42,689 nt of DNA from an uncultured Porphyromonadaceae bacterium (GCA_964465145.1 CAYXJR010000034.1:1-42689); one strand, 5' to 3'; counted from the stretch's first letter, positions 15,821 through 42,689 are shown. Notes: generated by a model from the letters alone, not told the origin. A program made the numbers and translations.

Positions 15821-17941
15821 TTACCAGGAAATTTTTTCATTTATCAATTCATTTCCATTCTGTATTTGCAGGAGGTAGATTCCCCTGTTCAACTGGGGTA
15901 AGTACAGAAGATTATCAAACTTATCCTTTAGAATCTTTTCTGCTCTTAATCGTCCTGAAAGATCATACACGCGCACTTTGGAACCATTATCCATTTTTCC
16001 AATAATTTTCACATAGCCTTCGGGCTGGTTAACTATGAACTTCAAATTATCTGCTGATATTTCAGCTTCTTCAATACTGAGTGTTTTCGCACTTGTATGT
16101 AAAAAGAATGTGCCAGCTTTGGTATTTTCATTATCGAGAAGCACAGAGTACGATGATCCTTCAACATCAAGCCTTGTATAAACTCCTGCATTCCTGTCCT
16201 CCAGGTAGCAGAATGCATTTTCCGGCAAATTATCTACTGCGGCTCTGAATGTAACAATAATACCTGCCGGAGCATCCAGTCCAATTGGTATTACAAGCTC
16301 ATCATAGTCTTCAGGAAGACTTTGAATGGCAAAATCCACACCATTATCTTCAACTAATTTTGAATAGAGAGAAAAATCCGGGTTACTTTTAAACATCCCG
16401 GCATCATAAGAAACATCCAGCCCACGTGTCATAGATTGATCAAAAGCTATTAGAGTATTGCTTTTGATATCCTGGCTTTCTGCGATGAGCTGAATGCTGG
16501 GCCATGGGGTATTGGAGGATTTAAAGTCAGTACCAGTTTGATGCTCCTGCATGGCTTCCGTGATACTAAAGGTAAATGTCCAAGGGTCTGCATTTTTTGC
16601 TCTTACAAAAAATCCCTGTCCTGCCTGAATATAGTTTTGGGCTAAAGATCCAGTTGGATTAGAAGCACCAGAATTATTTATTGTCTGGTATGTTGAAGAA
16701 GAAGCTTCCCACAAATACAAGGCAGCATAACTGACATCAAGTATTGCTACATTGGTGCTGTTTAATAAGTAATCTGTAGCACCACCAGAGGTAGCACGAA
16801 TGGCGCTCGGATATGGATTTCCCAGCAAATTCCAGCCCTGACCAGTGGAAACAGTGCGGGTAATAGTCATATTAGCTGGTGGTACATCAGTAGTTAGTAC
16901 CGTTCCTGTGAAAGAAACAATTCCATCTCCTGTACGCAGGGTAGAATAACCAATGCCATTTGTGAAGGGTATACCAGGATCAGCCGAAGGATAGGTATTC
17001 CAGTCATCAGCAGATTCACTGTAGGTTGTTATTGCTTTTAGAGAACCATTAGAAGCAATGCTATTTCCTGTAACGTATGACCAAATATCCTGACCAACAA
17101 CTGGGGCAGACACAAGATGCCACGGTACCACTGCACCAACCTTGCCTGTCATCCAGCGCTCATAAGTAATATTTCCGGTTGAGGTTCCTCCGACGATAAG
17201 AGATCCGGAAGAGGTATTATCGGATTGGACCAACAGGGTGGTAGTTATAAGATTACTACTGAAAGTTACTCCGGTTGTGGATCCAATTGTAATGTTCGCG
17301 GCTGTTTGAGCTTGACTAACCGTTTTGATCCCTGTTCCGGAGAAAACTAGATTATTAACAGTTGCAGGCAATCCGTTTGCTATTTGGTCAGCACCATTAA
17401 ATTCGTAATTGCCAGCTGTACTAAGAGTTACATTTTGATGCAGTGCTGGTGCTTGTATTGAACCGGTGCTTGTTGCATGATATATCCCATATTGATTCAT
17501 AGTGATCAAATTGCCATTCATGGCAAAAGTTGTTTGATTCCCATTAGTAACGTTTGCAGCGTAGGTAAGCTGAGTAGTACTAGTTGAATTAAACTGTATA
17601 GTTGCTCCAGAACCAATAGTTAATGTATTACCCCTTACAATGTTAATCACACCGTTTAAAGTAATAGAATGAGTATCGTTAGAGGTAAAATTTTGGTTCA
17701 ATTGGACAGTATGTCCTGTTGCAATTATAACATCATCAGTCCCGGTTGGAACAACATTACCAACCCAGGTGCCAGTGGCACTCCAGTTACCACTTGTAAG
17801 AGATGTTATTTGCCCCCAGCCTTTTTGTCCAACCAGAATGGCAAATAAGACGAAAAGAAATACAGTTTTAAAATAACCAGACTTGAGGAGTCCAAAAAGC
17901 TTACTTTCTGGCTGTTCTTGAGCTATGTTAATATTTACCAT
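15821..17941 (-). CDS. T9SS C-terminal-sorting-domain secreted protein, Thr/Asn/Gly-rich adhesin-like
   Basis: 706 aa with an N-terminal signal/anchor and long low-complexity T/S/N/G beta-rich regions. The C-terminal ~70 aa (FIVNQPEGYVKI...VRVYDLSGRL...GIYLLQI) match the Por/T9SS CTD pattern. Confidence 0.7.
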   Translation of the reverse strand: MVNINIAQEQPESKLFGLLKSGYFKTVFLFVLFAILVGQKGWGQITSLTSGNWSATGTWVGNVVPTGTDDVIIATGHTVQLNQNFTSNDTHSITLNGVINIVRGNTLTIGSGATIQFNSTSTTQLTYAANVTNGNQTTFAMNGNLITMNQYGIYHATSTGSIQAPALHQNVTLSTAGNYEFNGADQIANGLPATVNNLVFSGTGIKTVSQAQTAANITIGSTTGVTFSSNLITTTLLVQSDNTSSGSLIVGGTSTGNITYERWMTGKVGAVVPWHLVSAPVVGQDIWSYVTGNSIASNGSLKAITTYSESADDWNTYPSADPGIPFTNGIGYSTLRTGDGIVSFTGTVLTTDVPPANMTITRTVSTGQGWNLLGNPYPSAIRATSGGATDYLLNSTNVAILDVSYAALYLWEASSSTYQTINNSGASNPTGSLAQNYIQAGQGFFVRAKNADPWTFTFSITEAMQEHQTGTDFKSSNTPWPSIQLIAESQDIKSNTLIAFDQSMTRGLDVSYDAGMFKSNPDFSLYSKLVEDNGVDFAIQSLPEDYDELVIPIGLDAPAGIIVTFRAAVDNLPENAFCYLEDRNAGVYTRLDVEGSSYSVLLDNENTKAGTFFLHTSAKTLSIEEAEISADNLKFIVNQPEGYVKIIGKMDNGSKVRVYDLSGRLRAEKILKDKFDNLLYLPQLNRGIYLLQIQNGNELINEKISW

Positions 17942-38154: not shown

Positions 38155-39258
38155 ATGGAAATCCGACCTTTCACCCTCGAACGCTATTTCGCAGAATTTG
38201 AATTTGCGGCGAAGCACCTCCTTAGTAGCTCTGATTGTGAACCCCTTGCGATGCAAGAGTTGTTGGATATGGCCGATCCAGAGGCTATAGACTTGTGGAA
38301 TAATCTAAAGCTGGCCTATACCGAGTCGCTAGGCCTGCCAGCTCTCAGGGAGGAAATTGCCGGCATGTATGATGGTATTCAGCCTGACAGGGTAATGGTG
38401 GTAAATCCGGAGGAAGGGATTTTTCTAACTATGCAGACTTTGTTGGAGCCCGGCGATGAGGTGGTTGCCACCTTCCCCGGCTATCAGTCATTATATGAGA
38501 TTGCTATTAGCCAGGGCTGTAAAGTTGGTAAGTGGGAGCCTGATGATAATAATGAATTCTCAGTAGATAAATTGGAGGATCTTATTACTGACAAAACCAG
38601 AATGCTGGTGATTAATTTCCCTCATAATCCAACTGGTGACCAATTGAGCAAAAAAGATTTTGAGAGGGTGATCTCCTTAGCGAAAGAGAGGGATATTTTA
38701 TTGTTTTCAGATGAGATGTACAGGTTTCTTGAGTATAAAGAGGAGGATAGGCTGCCATCAGCTTGTGAGATCTATGAAAACTCAATTACCCTATGTGGTT
38801 TGTCGAAGAGTTTTGCTCTCCCTGGGCTTCGGCTTGGTTGGTTGATTATCAATGATCCTGTTGTCATGAACAAGCTGCAGTCGTATAAAGATTACACCAC
38901 AATATGCCAGCCAGGGCCTTCAGAGATTCTTGCTCTGATGGCAATAAGAAACAGAGACGAGATCATCAGAAGAAATCTGAAAATAATTGAAAAAAATATC
39001 CACTTAATGGAAGAATTCGCGGTGAGAAATCCGGATTTTATCAGATGGATCCCTCCAAAGGCTGGATCAGTTGCTTTTCCGGAAATTTTTGTGAGATATG
39101 AAGTGGAATATTTTTGCAGATGCCTGACAAAGAAAACTGGTGTTATGCTTCTGCCTTCAAGTGTATATGGCTATAAAAAAAATAGGGTCCGTATTGGTTT
39201 AGGGCGGATTGATTTTGAGGAAGGGTTAAGGGTGCTGGAGGGGTTTGTAACAATTTAA
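38155..39258 (+). CDS. Class I/II pyridoxal-phosphate-dependent aminotransferase
   Basis: 367 aa with a PLP-lysine region SKSFALPGLRLGW. The last 5 codons (GFVTI*) overlap a REP unit. Confidence 0.8.
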   Translation: MEIRPFTLERYFAEFEFAAKHLLSSSDCEPLAMQELLDMADPEAIDLWNNLKLAYTESLGLPALREEIAGMYDGIQPDRVMVVNPEEGIFLTMQTLLEPGDEVVATFPGYQSLYEIAISQGCKVGKWEPDDNNEFSVDKLEDLITDKTRMLVINFPHNPTGDQLSKKDFERVISLAKERDILLFSDEMYRFLEYKEEDRLPSACEIYENSITLCGLSKSFALPGLRLGWLIINDPVVMNKLQSYKDYTTICQPGPSEILALMAIRNRDEIIRRNLKIIEKNIHLMEEFAVRNPDFIRWIPPKAGSVAFPEIFVRYEVEYFCRCLTKKTGVMLLPSSVYGYKKNRVRIGLGRIDFEEGLRVLEGFVTI

Positions 39259-39420
39259 TCCCTACGGGATAATTGATTTTGCATCCTTGAATTTGTTCTA
39301 TAACAATTTAATACCTACGGGATATGTGGTTGTTGGGTTTTACCATGTCAATAATTGCCCGTAGGGCATAAACTGTTATAGAAACACACGTCCCACAATC
39401 AATATCTTACCCCGTAGGGG
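39244..39420. repeat. REP cluster (units TTCTATAACAATTTAATCCCTACGGGATA in both orientations; includes a REP doublet)
   Basis: Core hairpin ATCCC-TAC-GGGAT. Copies are at 39255, 39309 (+), 39356 and 39408 (−). The ~65-nt doublet 39309-39376 is repeated at 40127-40206. Confidence 0.85.
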
Positions 39421-39891
39421 TTATACATCTTCAATAAACCGAAAAAGGTATTTTTCGTCGAATTCTATTTTCAATTTTTCAAGAAAGGTCAAAAATTCTT
39501 GCTTAAATGTTCTGGCCTTATGATGATTCTCCTGGTTCAAAATATAATTATAGACCCTGTCCATATTGGAATGACTGCAAGAAAATGCTCCATATCCTTC
39601 CTGCCAGGAAAATTTGCCCATACAGAATTTTTCTTTATTGATGAGGAGGGATGTACTTCTTTTTACGTTTTGAACCACCTCAGAGATTGTTTTTGATGGA
39701 TTCAATCCAATCAGTAAATGAACATGATCTGAAGTGCCATCAATAATTATTGACTTGTGACCTAGGGTTGAGACAACTCCGCTCATATATTTAAAAACCT
39801 TTGGCCTAATTTGATCATTTAGAAGGGCTTCACGGTTTTTAACGGCAAATACAAGGTGGACATATAATTGGCAATAGGTTTTTGGTTTCAT
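39421..39891 (-). mobile_element. REP-associated tyrosine transposase (RAYT) / IS200-family Y1 HUH transposase
   Basis: 156 aa with an HUH motif (SDHVHLLIG) and a catalytic Tyr region (RVYNYILNQENHH). It is flanked on both sides by REP arrays. Confidence 0.8.
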
Positions 39892-39899
39892 ATTTTTTC

Positions 39900-40255
39900 T
39901 GTTAATCCCCTACGGGGAATTGATAATAAATTAAGGTATCCTTTGCTATAACAATATAATCCCTACGGGATAAATTTTCAAAGATATTTTGTCTTTGTGC
40001 TGTGTCATTTTCTATAACAGTTTAATCCCTACGGGATAATTGATTTTGCATCCTTGAATTTGTTCTATAACAATACAACCCTTACGGGGTAGATTAATCC
40101 CTGTGTAATTCCTTGTTCTATAACAATATAATCCCTACGGGATATGTGGTTGTTGGGTTTTACCATGTCAATAATTGCCCGTAGGGCATAAACTGTTATA
40201 GAAACATAGAACCATAACCGATTTTTTACCCCGTAGGGGTTACACATTTTATTTA
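39900..40255. repeat. REP cluster, about 8 units (CCCTACGGG / CCCGTAGGG cores) upstream of RAYT
   Basis: Copies at 39906, 39957, 40021, 40076, 40127 (+), 40174 and 40226 (−). It contains a near-exact copy of the 39254-39305 and 39309-39386 segments. Confidence 0.85.
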
Positions 40256-40346
40256 AATATTTTCCATTCTAATGGTATAGATGCATTATTTCCTGATATT
40301 GGAAAAAATCCACCCACTTTTTGTTATTTTGTAGAAAATTGCACTT

Positions 40347-40688
40347 ATGGCTAAAGACTGGAAAGACCGGCTTGGTGTGGTGTATTCAACAAGTTCCGAT
40401 TTTAATTACGAAAAGGAGGAACAGGAAGAATCAGATACTCTTCCTCCTCAGCAGCAAAAACTCATCGTAAGCCTCGATAAACGCAATCGTAAGGGGAAGG
40501 CTGTAACTCTGGTTGCTGGCTTCATAGGCTCAGAAGATGACCTCAAAGAACTGGGTAAACATCTCAAGACAAATTGTGGAGTTGGCGGCAGTGTAAAGGA
40601 GGGGGAGATTCTGATTCAAGGGGATCACCGGAACAAAGTTGTGGAGATATTGGAAAGGGATGGTTATAAGGTTAAAAGATCTGGTTAG
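40347..40688 (+). CDS. yciH: Translation initiation factor SUI1/YciH family
   Basis: 113 aa. An N-terminal Lys/Glu-rich region is followed by a SUI1 fold region (KAVTLVAGFIGSEDDLKELGKHLKTNCGVGGSV...IQGDHR). Confidence 0.85.
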   Translation: MAKDWKDRLGVVYSTSSDFNYEKEEQEESDTLPPQQQKLIVSLDKRNRKGKAVTLVAGFIGSEDDLKELGKHLKTNCGVGGSVKEGEILIQGDHRNKVVEILERDGYKVKRSG

Positions 40689-42239: not shown

Positions 42240-42689
42240 CTACTCCCTACATAACTCCCGTATCATCTCCTCCATTTCCCTTGTATCGCCGGCACCTATT
42301 TTATACCATCTGACAACGCCTTTTTTATCAATTAAAACGACATGTGGGATGGCGCCTATGCCATAGGCGAGGTTATTCAGGGATTCGTCGGACAAGCCGA
42401 TTGGATAAACAAAGCTCTGATTATCAATAAAAGCCTCAATATCAGCCTCAGTCTGCCGGTTATCCAAACGGGTTAGTCCCAGGATTTGTAATCCTTCCGG
42501 CCCATAGGTTTTTTGCAAACGTTCCAATTCAGGGAAAGTCTTGATGCATGGTTTACACCAGGTGGCCCAGAAATCGAGTAGGACCACCTTTCCTTTGCTA
42601 TTATATAGTCCTGGAAAACTCCCATTGAACCATTTTAACCCAAGTTGAAAAAGAATAATTGTAAAGCTAACATAATCTACGACATACAT
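42240..42689 (-). CDS. Thioredoxin-fold TlpA/redoxin-like thiol-disulfide oxidoreductase (start at window edge; may extend beyond)
   Basis: WATWCKPC CxxC motif. An ATG occupies the last 3 nt of the window, so the true start may lie outside. Confidence 0.7.
   Translation of the reverse strand: MYVVDYVSFTIILFQLGLKWFNGSFPGLYNSKGKVVLLDFWATWCKPCIKTFPELERLQKTYGPEGLQILGLTRLDNRQTEADIEAFIDNQSFVYPIGLSDESLNNLAYGIGAIPHVVLIDKKGVVRWYKIGAGDTREMEEMIRELCRE

Follow-up and report, generated by a model that had tools for sequence, protein, structure and literature searches.

A single IS200-like Y1 nuclease gene of predicted subclass 1.2 flanked by mirror-oriented, locally amplified mini-hairpins in an uncultured Porphyromonadaceae bacterium

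The standard example of transposase domestication in bacteria is provided by REP-associated tyrosine transposases (RAYTs) and their repetitive extragenic palindromes (REPs), and how these came from IS200-type elements is still open. Here we describe a locus in a 42,689-nt contig of an uncultured Porphyromonadaceae bacterium (GCA_964465145.1, CAYXJR010000034.1:1-42689; hereafter the window, meaning the whole stretch of DNA analyzed), in which a gene for an HUH/Y1 single-stranded DNA (ssDNA) nuclease, or 'transposase', lies between arrays of small hairpin units, an arrangement that a sequence-only reading had taken for a RAYT with its cognate REPs. The explanation that we favor, with somewhat better than even confidence, is that the locus is a single intact, low-copy IS200-like cassette of TnpAY1 subclass 1.2 with a REPtron-like architecture, whose hairpins would be cis sites of its own nuclease that multiply locally, rather than a canonical RAYT whose REPs form a family across the genome.

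The Y1 gene (39421-39891, minus strand) is intact, as had been proposed, and encodes a 156-aa protein that matches the Pfam Y1_Tnp profile at 92.3 bits and reads D55-H56-V57-H58-L-L, W96-Q97 and Y116-ILN-Q120-EN-H123-H124 at its motifs. The HUH motif and catalytic tyrosine required of a RAYT or TnpAREP protein are present (H56-V-H58, Y116). TnpAY1 subclass 1.2 has the signature DH[IV]H, WQ, YIKNQKEHH and a 30-aa tail, and class 2, that of the RAYTs, the motif Y---NP (Quentin et al. 2018, Table 1; PMC6006769). Compared with the definition of subclass 1.2, the protein has D55-H-V-H58 for DH[IV]H, W96-Q97 for WQ and YILNQENHH (residues 116-124) for Y---Q--HH (consensus YIKNQKEHH), as well as the subclass-specific C-terminal tail of about 30 aa, of which residues 125-156 align without gaps. 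Across 27 homologues the motif residues and the tail are invariant or nearly so, with W96-Q97, F129, E132, L149 and F150 strictly invariant. The Y---NP motif is absent from the protein, which reads Y116-I-L-N-Q-E-N-H-H there. It passes the NCBIfam model for IS200/IS605 family transposases (equivalog NF033573; 75.6 bits, cut-off 55) and fails that for REP-associated tyrosine transposases (NF047646, REP_Tyr_transpos; 22.4 bits, cut-off 80). In a search of solved structures the protein matched ISDra2 TnpA (E = 6e-6), IS608 TnpA (E = 2e-4) and archaeal relatives, and none of the eight Y1 transposases matched at E <= 1 is named as E. coli TnpAREP. On its motifs and hidden Markov model scores, the protein is thus classified as an IS200-like TnpAY1 of subclass 1.2, and by none of the tests run is it a RAYT, so that the RAYT identity given to it by the sequence-only reading is not supported. 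Several homologues carry the JGI label 'REP element-mobilizing transposase RayT', which would favor a RAYT; the label stems from a COG name and is misleading for such genes. No TnpB/OrfB domain was found among the 23 window open reading frames (ORFs) scanned against Pfam, which were 20 of the 30 ORFs of at least 180 aa, the two neighboring genes and the Y1 gene; in IS200/IS605 elements a tnpB partner is common without being required. An AlphaFold model of the protein, built on a 27-sequence alignment, was poor (mean predicted local distance difference test score, pLDDT, 48) and was set aside.

In each repeat unit a TATAAC/TATAAT/TACAAT-like box is followed, after about 8 nt, by a G+C-rich stem of 5 bp with a T(T/A)C triloop, which reads G(A/T)A on the opposite strand; in the window the loop is TAC and the box TATAAC. 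The core CCYTACGGG is present in 10 copies in the 42.7-kb window, where 0.46 are expected, all of them within 39260-40238, and 10 copies were reached in 0/100 shuffles. An eleventh core, the variant ACCTACGGG, lies at 39313. A covariance model of box plus hairpin (R1), built from 50 units of related loci and 4 from the window and run over the whole window with filters off, returned 11 units at E <= 2.3e-4, all in 39241-40257, and no unit in the other 41.7 kb (best match 14.2 bits, E = 0.7). The earlier estimate had been about 12 units in both orientations; the orientations stand and the number is 11. By the strand that reads the TAC loop, the units run +,+,-,- to the left of the gene and +,+,+,+,+,-,- to its right. 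The features of the locus are as follows.

39241-39276, plus strand: U1, outermost left unit (R1 35 bits)
39294-39329, plus strand: U2, opposite-orientation unit with variant core ACCTACGGG, pairing with U3 in the left inverted doublet (R1 26.2 bits)
39350-39385, minus strand: U3, distal downstream hairpin (hp2), box TTTCTATAACAG and TGCCC-TAC-GGGCA, canonical family position (R1 39.1 bits)
39403-39438, minus strand: U4, proximal downstream hairpin (hp1), TATAA-CCCC-TAC-GGGG, canonical family position (R1 29.6 bits)
39421-39891, minus strand: Y1 gene
39889-39924, plus strand: U5, proximal upstream hairpin, mirror image of hp1, TTCCCCGTAGGGGAT on the gene strand, canonical family position (R1 26.1 bits)
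39942-39977, plus strand: U6, distal upstream hairpin, mirror image of hp2, canonical family position (R1 40 bits)
40008-40043, plus strand: U7, extra upstream unit (R1 40 bits)
40061-40096, plus strand: U8, extra upstream unit (R1 32.4 bits)
40114-40149, plus strand: U9, extra upstream unit (R1 37.2 bits)
40170-40205, minus strand: U10, hp2-type, in 'downstream' orientation but upstream of the gene (R1 39.1 bits)
40222-40257, minus strand: U11, hp1-type, in 'downstream' orientation but upstream of the gene (R1 31.4 bits)
39293-39386, both strands: left inverted doublet of U2 and U3, arms 36 nt apart, folding as one long ssDNA hairpin (-16.6 and -16.5 kcal/mol, z -4.2 and -4.5)
40113-40206, both strands: right inverted doublet of U9 and U10 (ssDNA fold -15.9 kcal/mol, z -3.8)
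about 39246-39441, both strands: left copy of a direct-repeat block, U1-U4 and the 3' end of the Y1 gene (flank alignment)
about 40013-40260, both strands: right copy of the direct-repeat block, U7-U11 and a gene-end remnant (flank alignment)

When units are called R or L according to whether the gene strand or the opposite one reads the T(T/A)C loop, the order along the gene strand is gene-end remnant, U11(R), U10(R), U9(L), U8(L), U7(L), U6(L), U5(L), gene, U4(R), U3(R), U2(L), U1(L), in which U6 and U5 on one side of the gene and U4 and U3 on the other are mirror images. The box of U4 holds the Y1 stop codon, and homologous loci have a hairpin at the same position; U5 ends about 10 nt before the Y1 ATG, and the identical TTCCCCGTAGGGGAT precedes the ATG in the related loci L006, L011, L012, L014 and L015. 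In our reading, U6, U5, U4 and U3 are the family's own end structures and the other seven units local extra copies. These extra copies can be read as two components: the run U7-U9 (40008-40149), with 53-nt spacing and spacers constant in length but variable in sequence, and a block of 195-250 nt, comprising units and the last ~18 nt of the gene, that is directly repeated on both sides. Segments of the two blocks are 91%, 98% and 78% identical, and the right block has one extra 53-nt unit. The two inverted doublets, already recognized in the sequence-only reading as near-identical, share 98% identity over 94 nt. Next to U11 the final ~18 nt of the Y1 gene recur in decayed form (40240-40257); from their alignment, U10, U11 and this remnant appear as the residue of a partial head-to-tail copy of the cassette, and the block found on both sides as what is left of a partial head-to-tail cassette duplication. 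A listed 60-aa ORF at 40065-40247 (minus strand) is a mere read-through of units U8-U11 and no gene, and on the contigs L001-L003, which have the same locus, gene callers placed no ORF in the array.

The Y1 gene lies between an aminotransferase gene (38155-39258, plus strand) and a SUI1 gene (40347-40688, plus strand). The left array overlaps the aminotransferase stop codon, as had been noticed before: U1 covers the stop (39256-39258), and over 39241-39258 its box encodes the last four codons (…V T I *) and the stop of that gene. The aminotransferase looks complete, its Pfam match reaching profile position 346/361, and the array may have replaced the original 3' end of the gene.

Relatives of the Y1 protein are numerous (more than 3,400 at E <= 1e-10), the best of them only 67% identical. 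At least 588 are in GTDB species genomes, mostly of Bacteroidota, with some in Ignavibacteria, Calditrichia, Anaerolineae and Acidobacteria. The 80 best loci are spread over 79 assemblies, most of them of Bacteroidota, with about one copy per genome, and the window likewise holds one copy; none of these 80 loci is cyanobacterial, while the published distribution of subclass 1.2 is Bacteroidetes/Cyanobacteria at low copy number (PMC6006769). Contigs with a homologue were mostly just 1-4 kb in length in the protein search, in a collection where short contigs are the rule anyway, and five contigs (L009, L010, L002, L035 and L068) end no more than 50-100 nt past the gene or inside an array. It is possible that the arrays break short-read assemblies.

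The hairpins were followed through 84 loci (the window, L005-L007 and L011-L090), most of them with 10 kb per side. In nearly all, the gene has two units on either side, arranged as mirror images with the TTC or TAC loop facing outward, and the layout mirror hp2, mirror hp1, ATG...stop, hp1, hp2 recurs in homologous loci at 47-67% protein identity. In these relatives hp1 abuts the stop codon and its mirror image stands 10-30 nt before the ATG. When any 3-nt loop was allowed, TTC or TAC facing outward still accounted for 188 of 264 flanking hairpins, and orientation was strongly biased on either side of the gene (upstream 118 L vs. 22 R; downstream 100 R vs. 33 L). Of the 84 loci, 76 have one or more such hairpins within 1.5 kb of the gene (median 4, maximum 24); the window has 9 perfect ones. 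The same loop is carried by 31 stem variants, several of which can occur inside one locus, and this variety of stems with a constant loop argues for recognition of a folded single strand and not of a duplex palindrome. A reading of the units as duplex-palindrome operators is unlikely, as one locus can hold up to four different stems with the same loop.

Array form varies among the relatives. The two closest relatives that were fetched differ from each other: L093 (66% protein identity) has 54-nt-period runs beside the gene, near the 53 nt of the window, with near-identical units on both sides (L093:930-2047), and L091 (63%) has four units, all downstream. In L091 (10454-10720), as in L007/L008 (10480-10700), no hairpins precede the gene, and the downstream units R, R, L, L form one palindromic module whose L units directly adjoin the next gene at its start. 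Eleven units with an exact 151-nt period were seen at L034:10603-12146, and about 30 units are spread over both sides of the gene at L084:9055-11262.

The sequence-only reading saw in the locus a canonical REP/RAYT system, in which a domesticated RAYT with cognate REP arrays is the source of a REP/REPIN family across the genome. The layout does fit a REPtron or RAYT: a lone Y1 gene, with no TnpB partner among the window ORFs scanned, flanked by inverted hairpins in both orientations, some in inverted doublets that fold long. The units themselves fail the published REP rule (GT[AG]G, 0-2 nt 5' of the hairpin foot, with a stem of 7 bp or more; PMC6006769), since their stem is 5 bp and the bases 5' of its foot are A/T-rich. 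The GTAG that they do contain spans the loop and 3' arm of the hairpin, and most relatives have GAAG there.

Searches for dispersed copies were equally unfavorable to genome-wide dissemination. A strict REP pattern, TATAACARTWTAWNCCCTACGGG, which matches 5 of the 11 local units, had zero matches in 185,579 species genomes, which means that the species representatives do not include the source genome, and its sole match in the JGI metagenomes was a contig with the same locus (L004, the same as L001). The exact protein is found on three short metagenome contigs with the same neighbors and the same core-motif spacing, save where one contig ends within the left array; the samples in which the locus occurs are JGI 3300028191 and ENA ERZ27248895/ERZ27248920. 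The unit-free 41.7 kb of the window are ordinary chromosomal genes, including those for pyruvate dehydrogenase E1, PmbA/TldD, glycoside hydrolases and an ABC transporter. With REPs at the density of E. coli, about one per 8 kb, about five copies would be predicted in this part of the window, so that a load like that of E. coli or Pseudomonas is excluded, while a sparse one is still compatible.

Over the 84 loci, perfect 5-bp hairpins with TTC/TAC or GAA/GTA loops number about 9/kb within 100 nt of the gene, 1-2/kb at 250-500 nt and 0.004/kb at 5-10 kb (2 in 558 kb). Their density in ORF-free DNA more than 2.5 kb from the Y1 gene is 0.10/kb, and several of these hits are second gene copies. The core motif of the window (CCCGTAGGG or CCCTACGGG) likewise occurs in related loci at 0.32/kb near the gene vs. 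0.004/kb far from it. R1 gave 421 matches at E <= 0.01 across 1.27 Mb of related loci, and among the top 300 matches listed only 3 are farther than 2.5 kb from a Y1 gene: L048 accounts for one of them and a gene-less copy in L018 for the other two (coordinates read by eye). Because hairpins and R1 matches are confined to the surroundings of the Y1 gene, the units are cis features of the Y1 gene locus and not a dispersed repeat family. Four TCCGC-TTC-GCGGA hairpins with an 88-nt period at about 5560-5830 of L021, 4.2-4.4 kb upstream of the gene, are absent from the 300 listed R1 matches; they may represent either a diverged array or some unrelated tandem repeat.

In L039 and L048 a few units or dyads stand alone about 3 kb from the gene, which would suit a canonical REP/RAYT system, as would 'IS200 Group 3' of Bertels et al., which is RAYT-like and has abundant flanking 16-mers and no duplicates (PMC5581495). 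They are outweighed by a protein without Y---NP, well below the cut-off of the RAYT model and with no TnpAREP-named structure among its matches, by short-stemmed units that lack the GT[AG]G foot, and by the confinement of these units both in the window and in the family, and we regard a canonical REP/RAYT system as quite improbable. The locus is no evidence for a REP source in this genome. Two observations had been named in advance as speaking against the RAYT interpretation: as far as searched, the repeat is indeed absent elsewhere, and the other, grouping with IS200/IS605 TnpA that has a TnpB partner, was found by half, the protein being of IS200 type but without TnpB.

Movement of the cassette and turnover of its units can be seen in the relatives. 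A second copy at 95-98% identity is present in two of about 80 related genomes, in each case with sharp limits of similarity: 725 bp at 94.6% in L005/L006, where the proteins are 94% identical, and 682 bp at 97.8% in L016/L019. At L012:10001-11160 two complete Y1 genes follow each other head to tail at a period of 692 nt, both accompanied by hairpins of their own; in L018 a gene-less copy with an internal deletion (17393-17816) lies 7.4 kb from the full one. The downstream array of L005 consists of three 256-nt gene-less units, each made of the last 27 nt of the gene and the downstream hairpins joined to upstream hairpins, and the duplicated block of the window follows the same logic of partial copies. 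Array length is polymorphic: L007 and L008, the same locus from different samples, have three vs. one array unit of about 238 nt. The genomic context of the Y1 gene differs in every genome examined, and its position between aminotransferase and SUI1 genes was not found in the other loci when the 84 were searched. In L016 the boundary of the duplicated cassette falls within the loop and 3' arm of a hairpin, a single observation which hints that joining occurs at the hairpin.

Two further observations concern these copies. The distal downstream hairpin at L018:10520-10560 is split by a 20-nt insertion (AAGCCC[CCGATAAATCGGGGCAGGCT]CTACGGGCT) that the orthologues L016 and L019 lack, and the interrupted form recurs in the gene-less copy at L018:17393-17816. 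The second copy in L006 (8692-10471; protein P0112) has YH for the conserved HH and other changes at conserved positions, adjoins an IS110-family transposase gene and may be a decaying duplicate.

Such copies could suggest an ordinary, currently active IS200-type insertion sequence (IS), the arrays having built up as full and deleted copies inserted, in tandem or nested, into a favored target that the element carries at its own end. The IS200 equivalog match, the discrete duplicated units of 0.68-0.73 kb in two other genomes, the tandem copies of L012, the deleted copy of L018 and the new context in each genome examined would all agree with this. An active IS is harder to reconcile with the single copy in the 42.7-kb window and, usually, in each genome among the 80 best loci, with an architecture unchanged in all three metagenome contigs that have this locus, and with ends that are mirror images and not same-strand. 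Furthermore, the 53-nt-period runs of single units are no whole-element insertions, and subclass 1.2 is without IS-like properties according to the literature. We therefore consider an active IS unlikely.

It is also conceivable that the hairpins act in RNA only, as stem-loops of the 5' and 3' untranslated regions that govern translation, stability or termination of the nuclease mRNA without a role in DNA, for which the 5' hairpin of IS200 is a precedent. The position of hp1 and its mirror image at the stop codon and before the ATG would suit such a role. On the strand that reads T(T/A)CG the loop forms C(UUCG)G or C(UACG)G, a tetraloop that is very stable in RNA, and this reading as a UNCG tetraloop means that an RNA role is not dismissible from sequence alone. 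A terminator scan predicted 4 terminators where 1.0 are expected, all four being repeat units themselves. However, the upstream units have the opposite orientation, so that the mRNA there would lack the UNCG form, and arrays reach 1.7 kb from the gene in both orientations. Events at the level of DNA are indicated by the duplicated cassettes, by the gene-less copies and by the box that is conserved 5' of the stem, and Rfam gave only sub-threshold matches, to eukaryotic microRNA and small nucleolar RNA hairpin models, which we read as noise. An exclusive function in RNA thus appears very improbable. A sigma-70 promoter scan showed no enrichment (6 found vs. 5.5 expected).

The regular 53-nt spacing, with its spacers of constant length and variable sequence, might recall a CRISPR-like or other simple tandem array, and a cluster of palindromes could in principle arise by chance. 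Both are refuted by orientation and family data and have practically nothing left to recommend them: the units stand in both orientations and are just 68-87% alike, their enrichment is far above chance, and the same units lie beside homologous genes in dozens of genomes. Tandem Repeats Finder reported no array apart from a trivial 8-mer, and the 53-nt periodicity is visible only in the register of the conserved units.

If the hairpins are cis sites of the cassette's own nuclease, as we favor, a mechanism can be proposed by analogy with IS608 and ISDra2 TnpA, which bind a hairpin and whose cleavage is guided by a short sequence 5' of its foot (PMC6006769). The nuclease would bind the mini-hairpins in ssDNA, e.g. 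at replication forks, and would cut and rejoin DNA beside them by means of its HUH metal site and Tyr116, with the conserved box as a candidate cleavage or guide site. A rare outcome would be that the ~0.7-kb cassette or gene-less derivatives are moved or duplicated, and a commoner one that units are gained or lost beside the gene. The nuclease may thus be the cause of array growth; slippage or homologous recombination would yield similar products. A G-N-A triloop closed by C-G is an unusually stable DNA mini-hairpin, and the conserved GAA/GTA loop on one strand fits this structure.

Several points weigh against this explanation. Single units fold weakly (-2.7 to -5.5 kcal/mol, z -0.9 to -3.2, with nearest-neighbor DNA parameters). 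A covariation count on the unit alignment (100% paired, double changes at all 5 pairs) was set aside as circular because the units had been chosen by a scan that required pairing; the non-circular evidence for hairpins is the near/far difference in density, the loop bias in the any-loop scan and the variety of stems. The mirror-image ends are unlike the same-strand left-end/right-end logic of IS200/IS605 'peel and paste' and closer to a REPtron or REPIN. With about one copy per genome in the retrieved loci, the element hardly acts like an active IS, and subclass 1.2 as a whole averages 1.7 copies per genome at only 36% identity (PMC6006769). A sparse dispersed population of units may exist beyond the window, the family-level data setting a bound of about one unit per 70 kb or less. 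Finally, nuclease activity is a prediction for every member of the family.

A broader possibility, which we put forward only tentatively and rate well below even, is that subclass-1.2 Y1 nucleases and box-plus-triloop mini-hairpins together make up a distinct, so far undescribed HUH/hairpin system between IS200 and RAYT/REP. It would be characterized by mirror-image ends, by a G-N-A / T-N-C triloop that is conserved while the 5-bp stems covary freely, and by arrays beside the gene that grow and shrink through nuclease-catalyzed cleavage and rejoining at or in the hairpin; it would hardly move within the genome and might be retained for some host function. If this is true, REP/RAYT systems could have arisen from such a state, or domestication could have taken place a second time, independently. 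Subclass 1.2 is the IS200-type group nearest to the transition from IS200 to RAYT, and a conserved hairpin unit, a REPtron-like mirror arrangement and local amplification without dispersal give it a concrete candidate substrate, which makes the intermediate state open to experimental testing. For annotation, a flanking array alone is no basis for assuming a genome-wide REP family.

The window ends on the right in a thioredoxin-like gene (42240-42689). In contigs with the same locus a gene for a 631-aa DDE_Tnp_1 (IS4-like) transposase adjoins that gene directly (L001:1160-3055, L002:1278-3173), so that the right end is probably an assembly break at an insertion sequence.

Among known systems, the locus resembles a REPtron in layout and IS200 in enzyme type, and is TnpAY1 subclass 1.2 by every feature tested. 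With that subclass (Quentin et al. 2018, PMC6006769) it shares DH[IV]H, WQ, Y---Q--HH, the tail of about 30 aa, a length of ~150 aa, relatives mostly in Bacteroidota, low copy number and the lack of TnpB. The subclass as published is without REP-like structures, whereas here and in most of the 84 loci it comes with mirror-oriented mini-hairpins, often amplified to arrays. The automatic search in that study accepted only fully paired stems of 7-20 nt with a GTAG/GTGG foot, rules under which units with a 5-bp stem are undetectable, and judging by this study, the one description of the subclass that was found, its association with hairpins appears to be undescribed.

IS200, IS608 and ISDra2 (subclass 1.1) are represented among the closest solved-structure relatives of the protein and, like the locus, have subterminal hairpins flanking the gene; the IS200 model is passed as well. 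The size of IS200 is about 0.7 kb, which the 0.68-0.73-kb cassette of the two-copy genomes resembles. Unlike these elements, the locus has two hairpins per end plus arrays, an extra C-terminal tail, about one copy per genome and mirror-image ends; the same-strand end hairpins of IS200/IS605 were not found, since the hairpin-plus-box units on the two sides are reverse complements.

In the REPtron (E. coli-type tnpAREP, class 2, with arrays of REPs or bacterial interspersed mosaic elements, BIMEs), a lone Y1 gene without TnpB is likewise accompanied by inverted flanking hairpins and inverted doublets, and there too the cassette seems not to multiply as a unit in most genomes. The locus differs in its protein, which has Y---Q--HH in place of Y---NP and fails NF047646, and in its units, which combine a 5-bp stem with a triloop, have no GT[AG]G foot and are not dispersed at appreciable density.

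The 'IS200 Group 3' of Bertels et al. (2017, PMC5581495) is also of IS200 type and RAYT-like, with no duplicates, none on plasmids and moderately abundant flanking 16-mers (21 occurrences). Likened by description only, it is probably the same family as subclass 1.2, and its moderate 16-mer abundance could be explained by local arrays alone. The nearest described architecture, though for other Y1 proteins, is that of the TIRtron/TIRYT (Di Nocera et al. 2013, PMC3733652), in which a Y1 gene lies within terminal inverted repeats (TIRs), sometimes in dimers or clusters, with no or only a small repeat family elsewhere. TIRYTs are RAYT-like (PMC3733652) and probably of class 2.1 (PMC6006769), and their TIR motifs (GGGGWSAS) and lengths differ from the ends described here.

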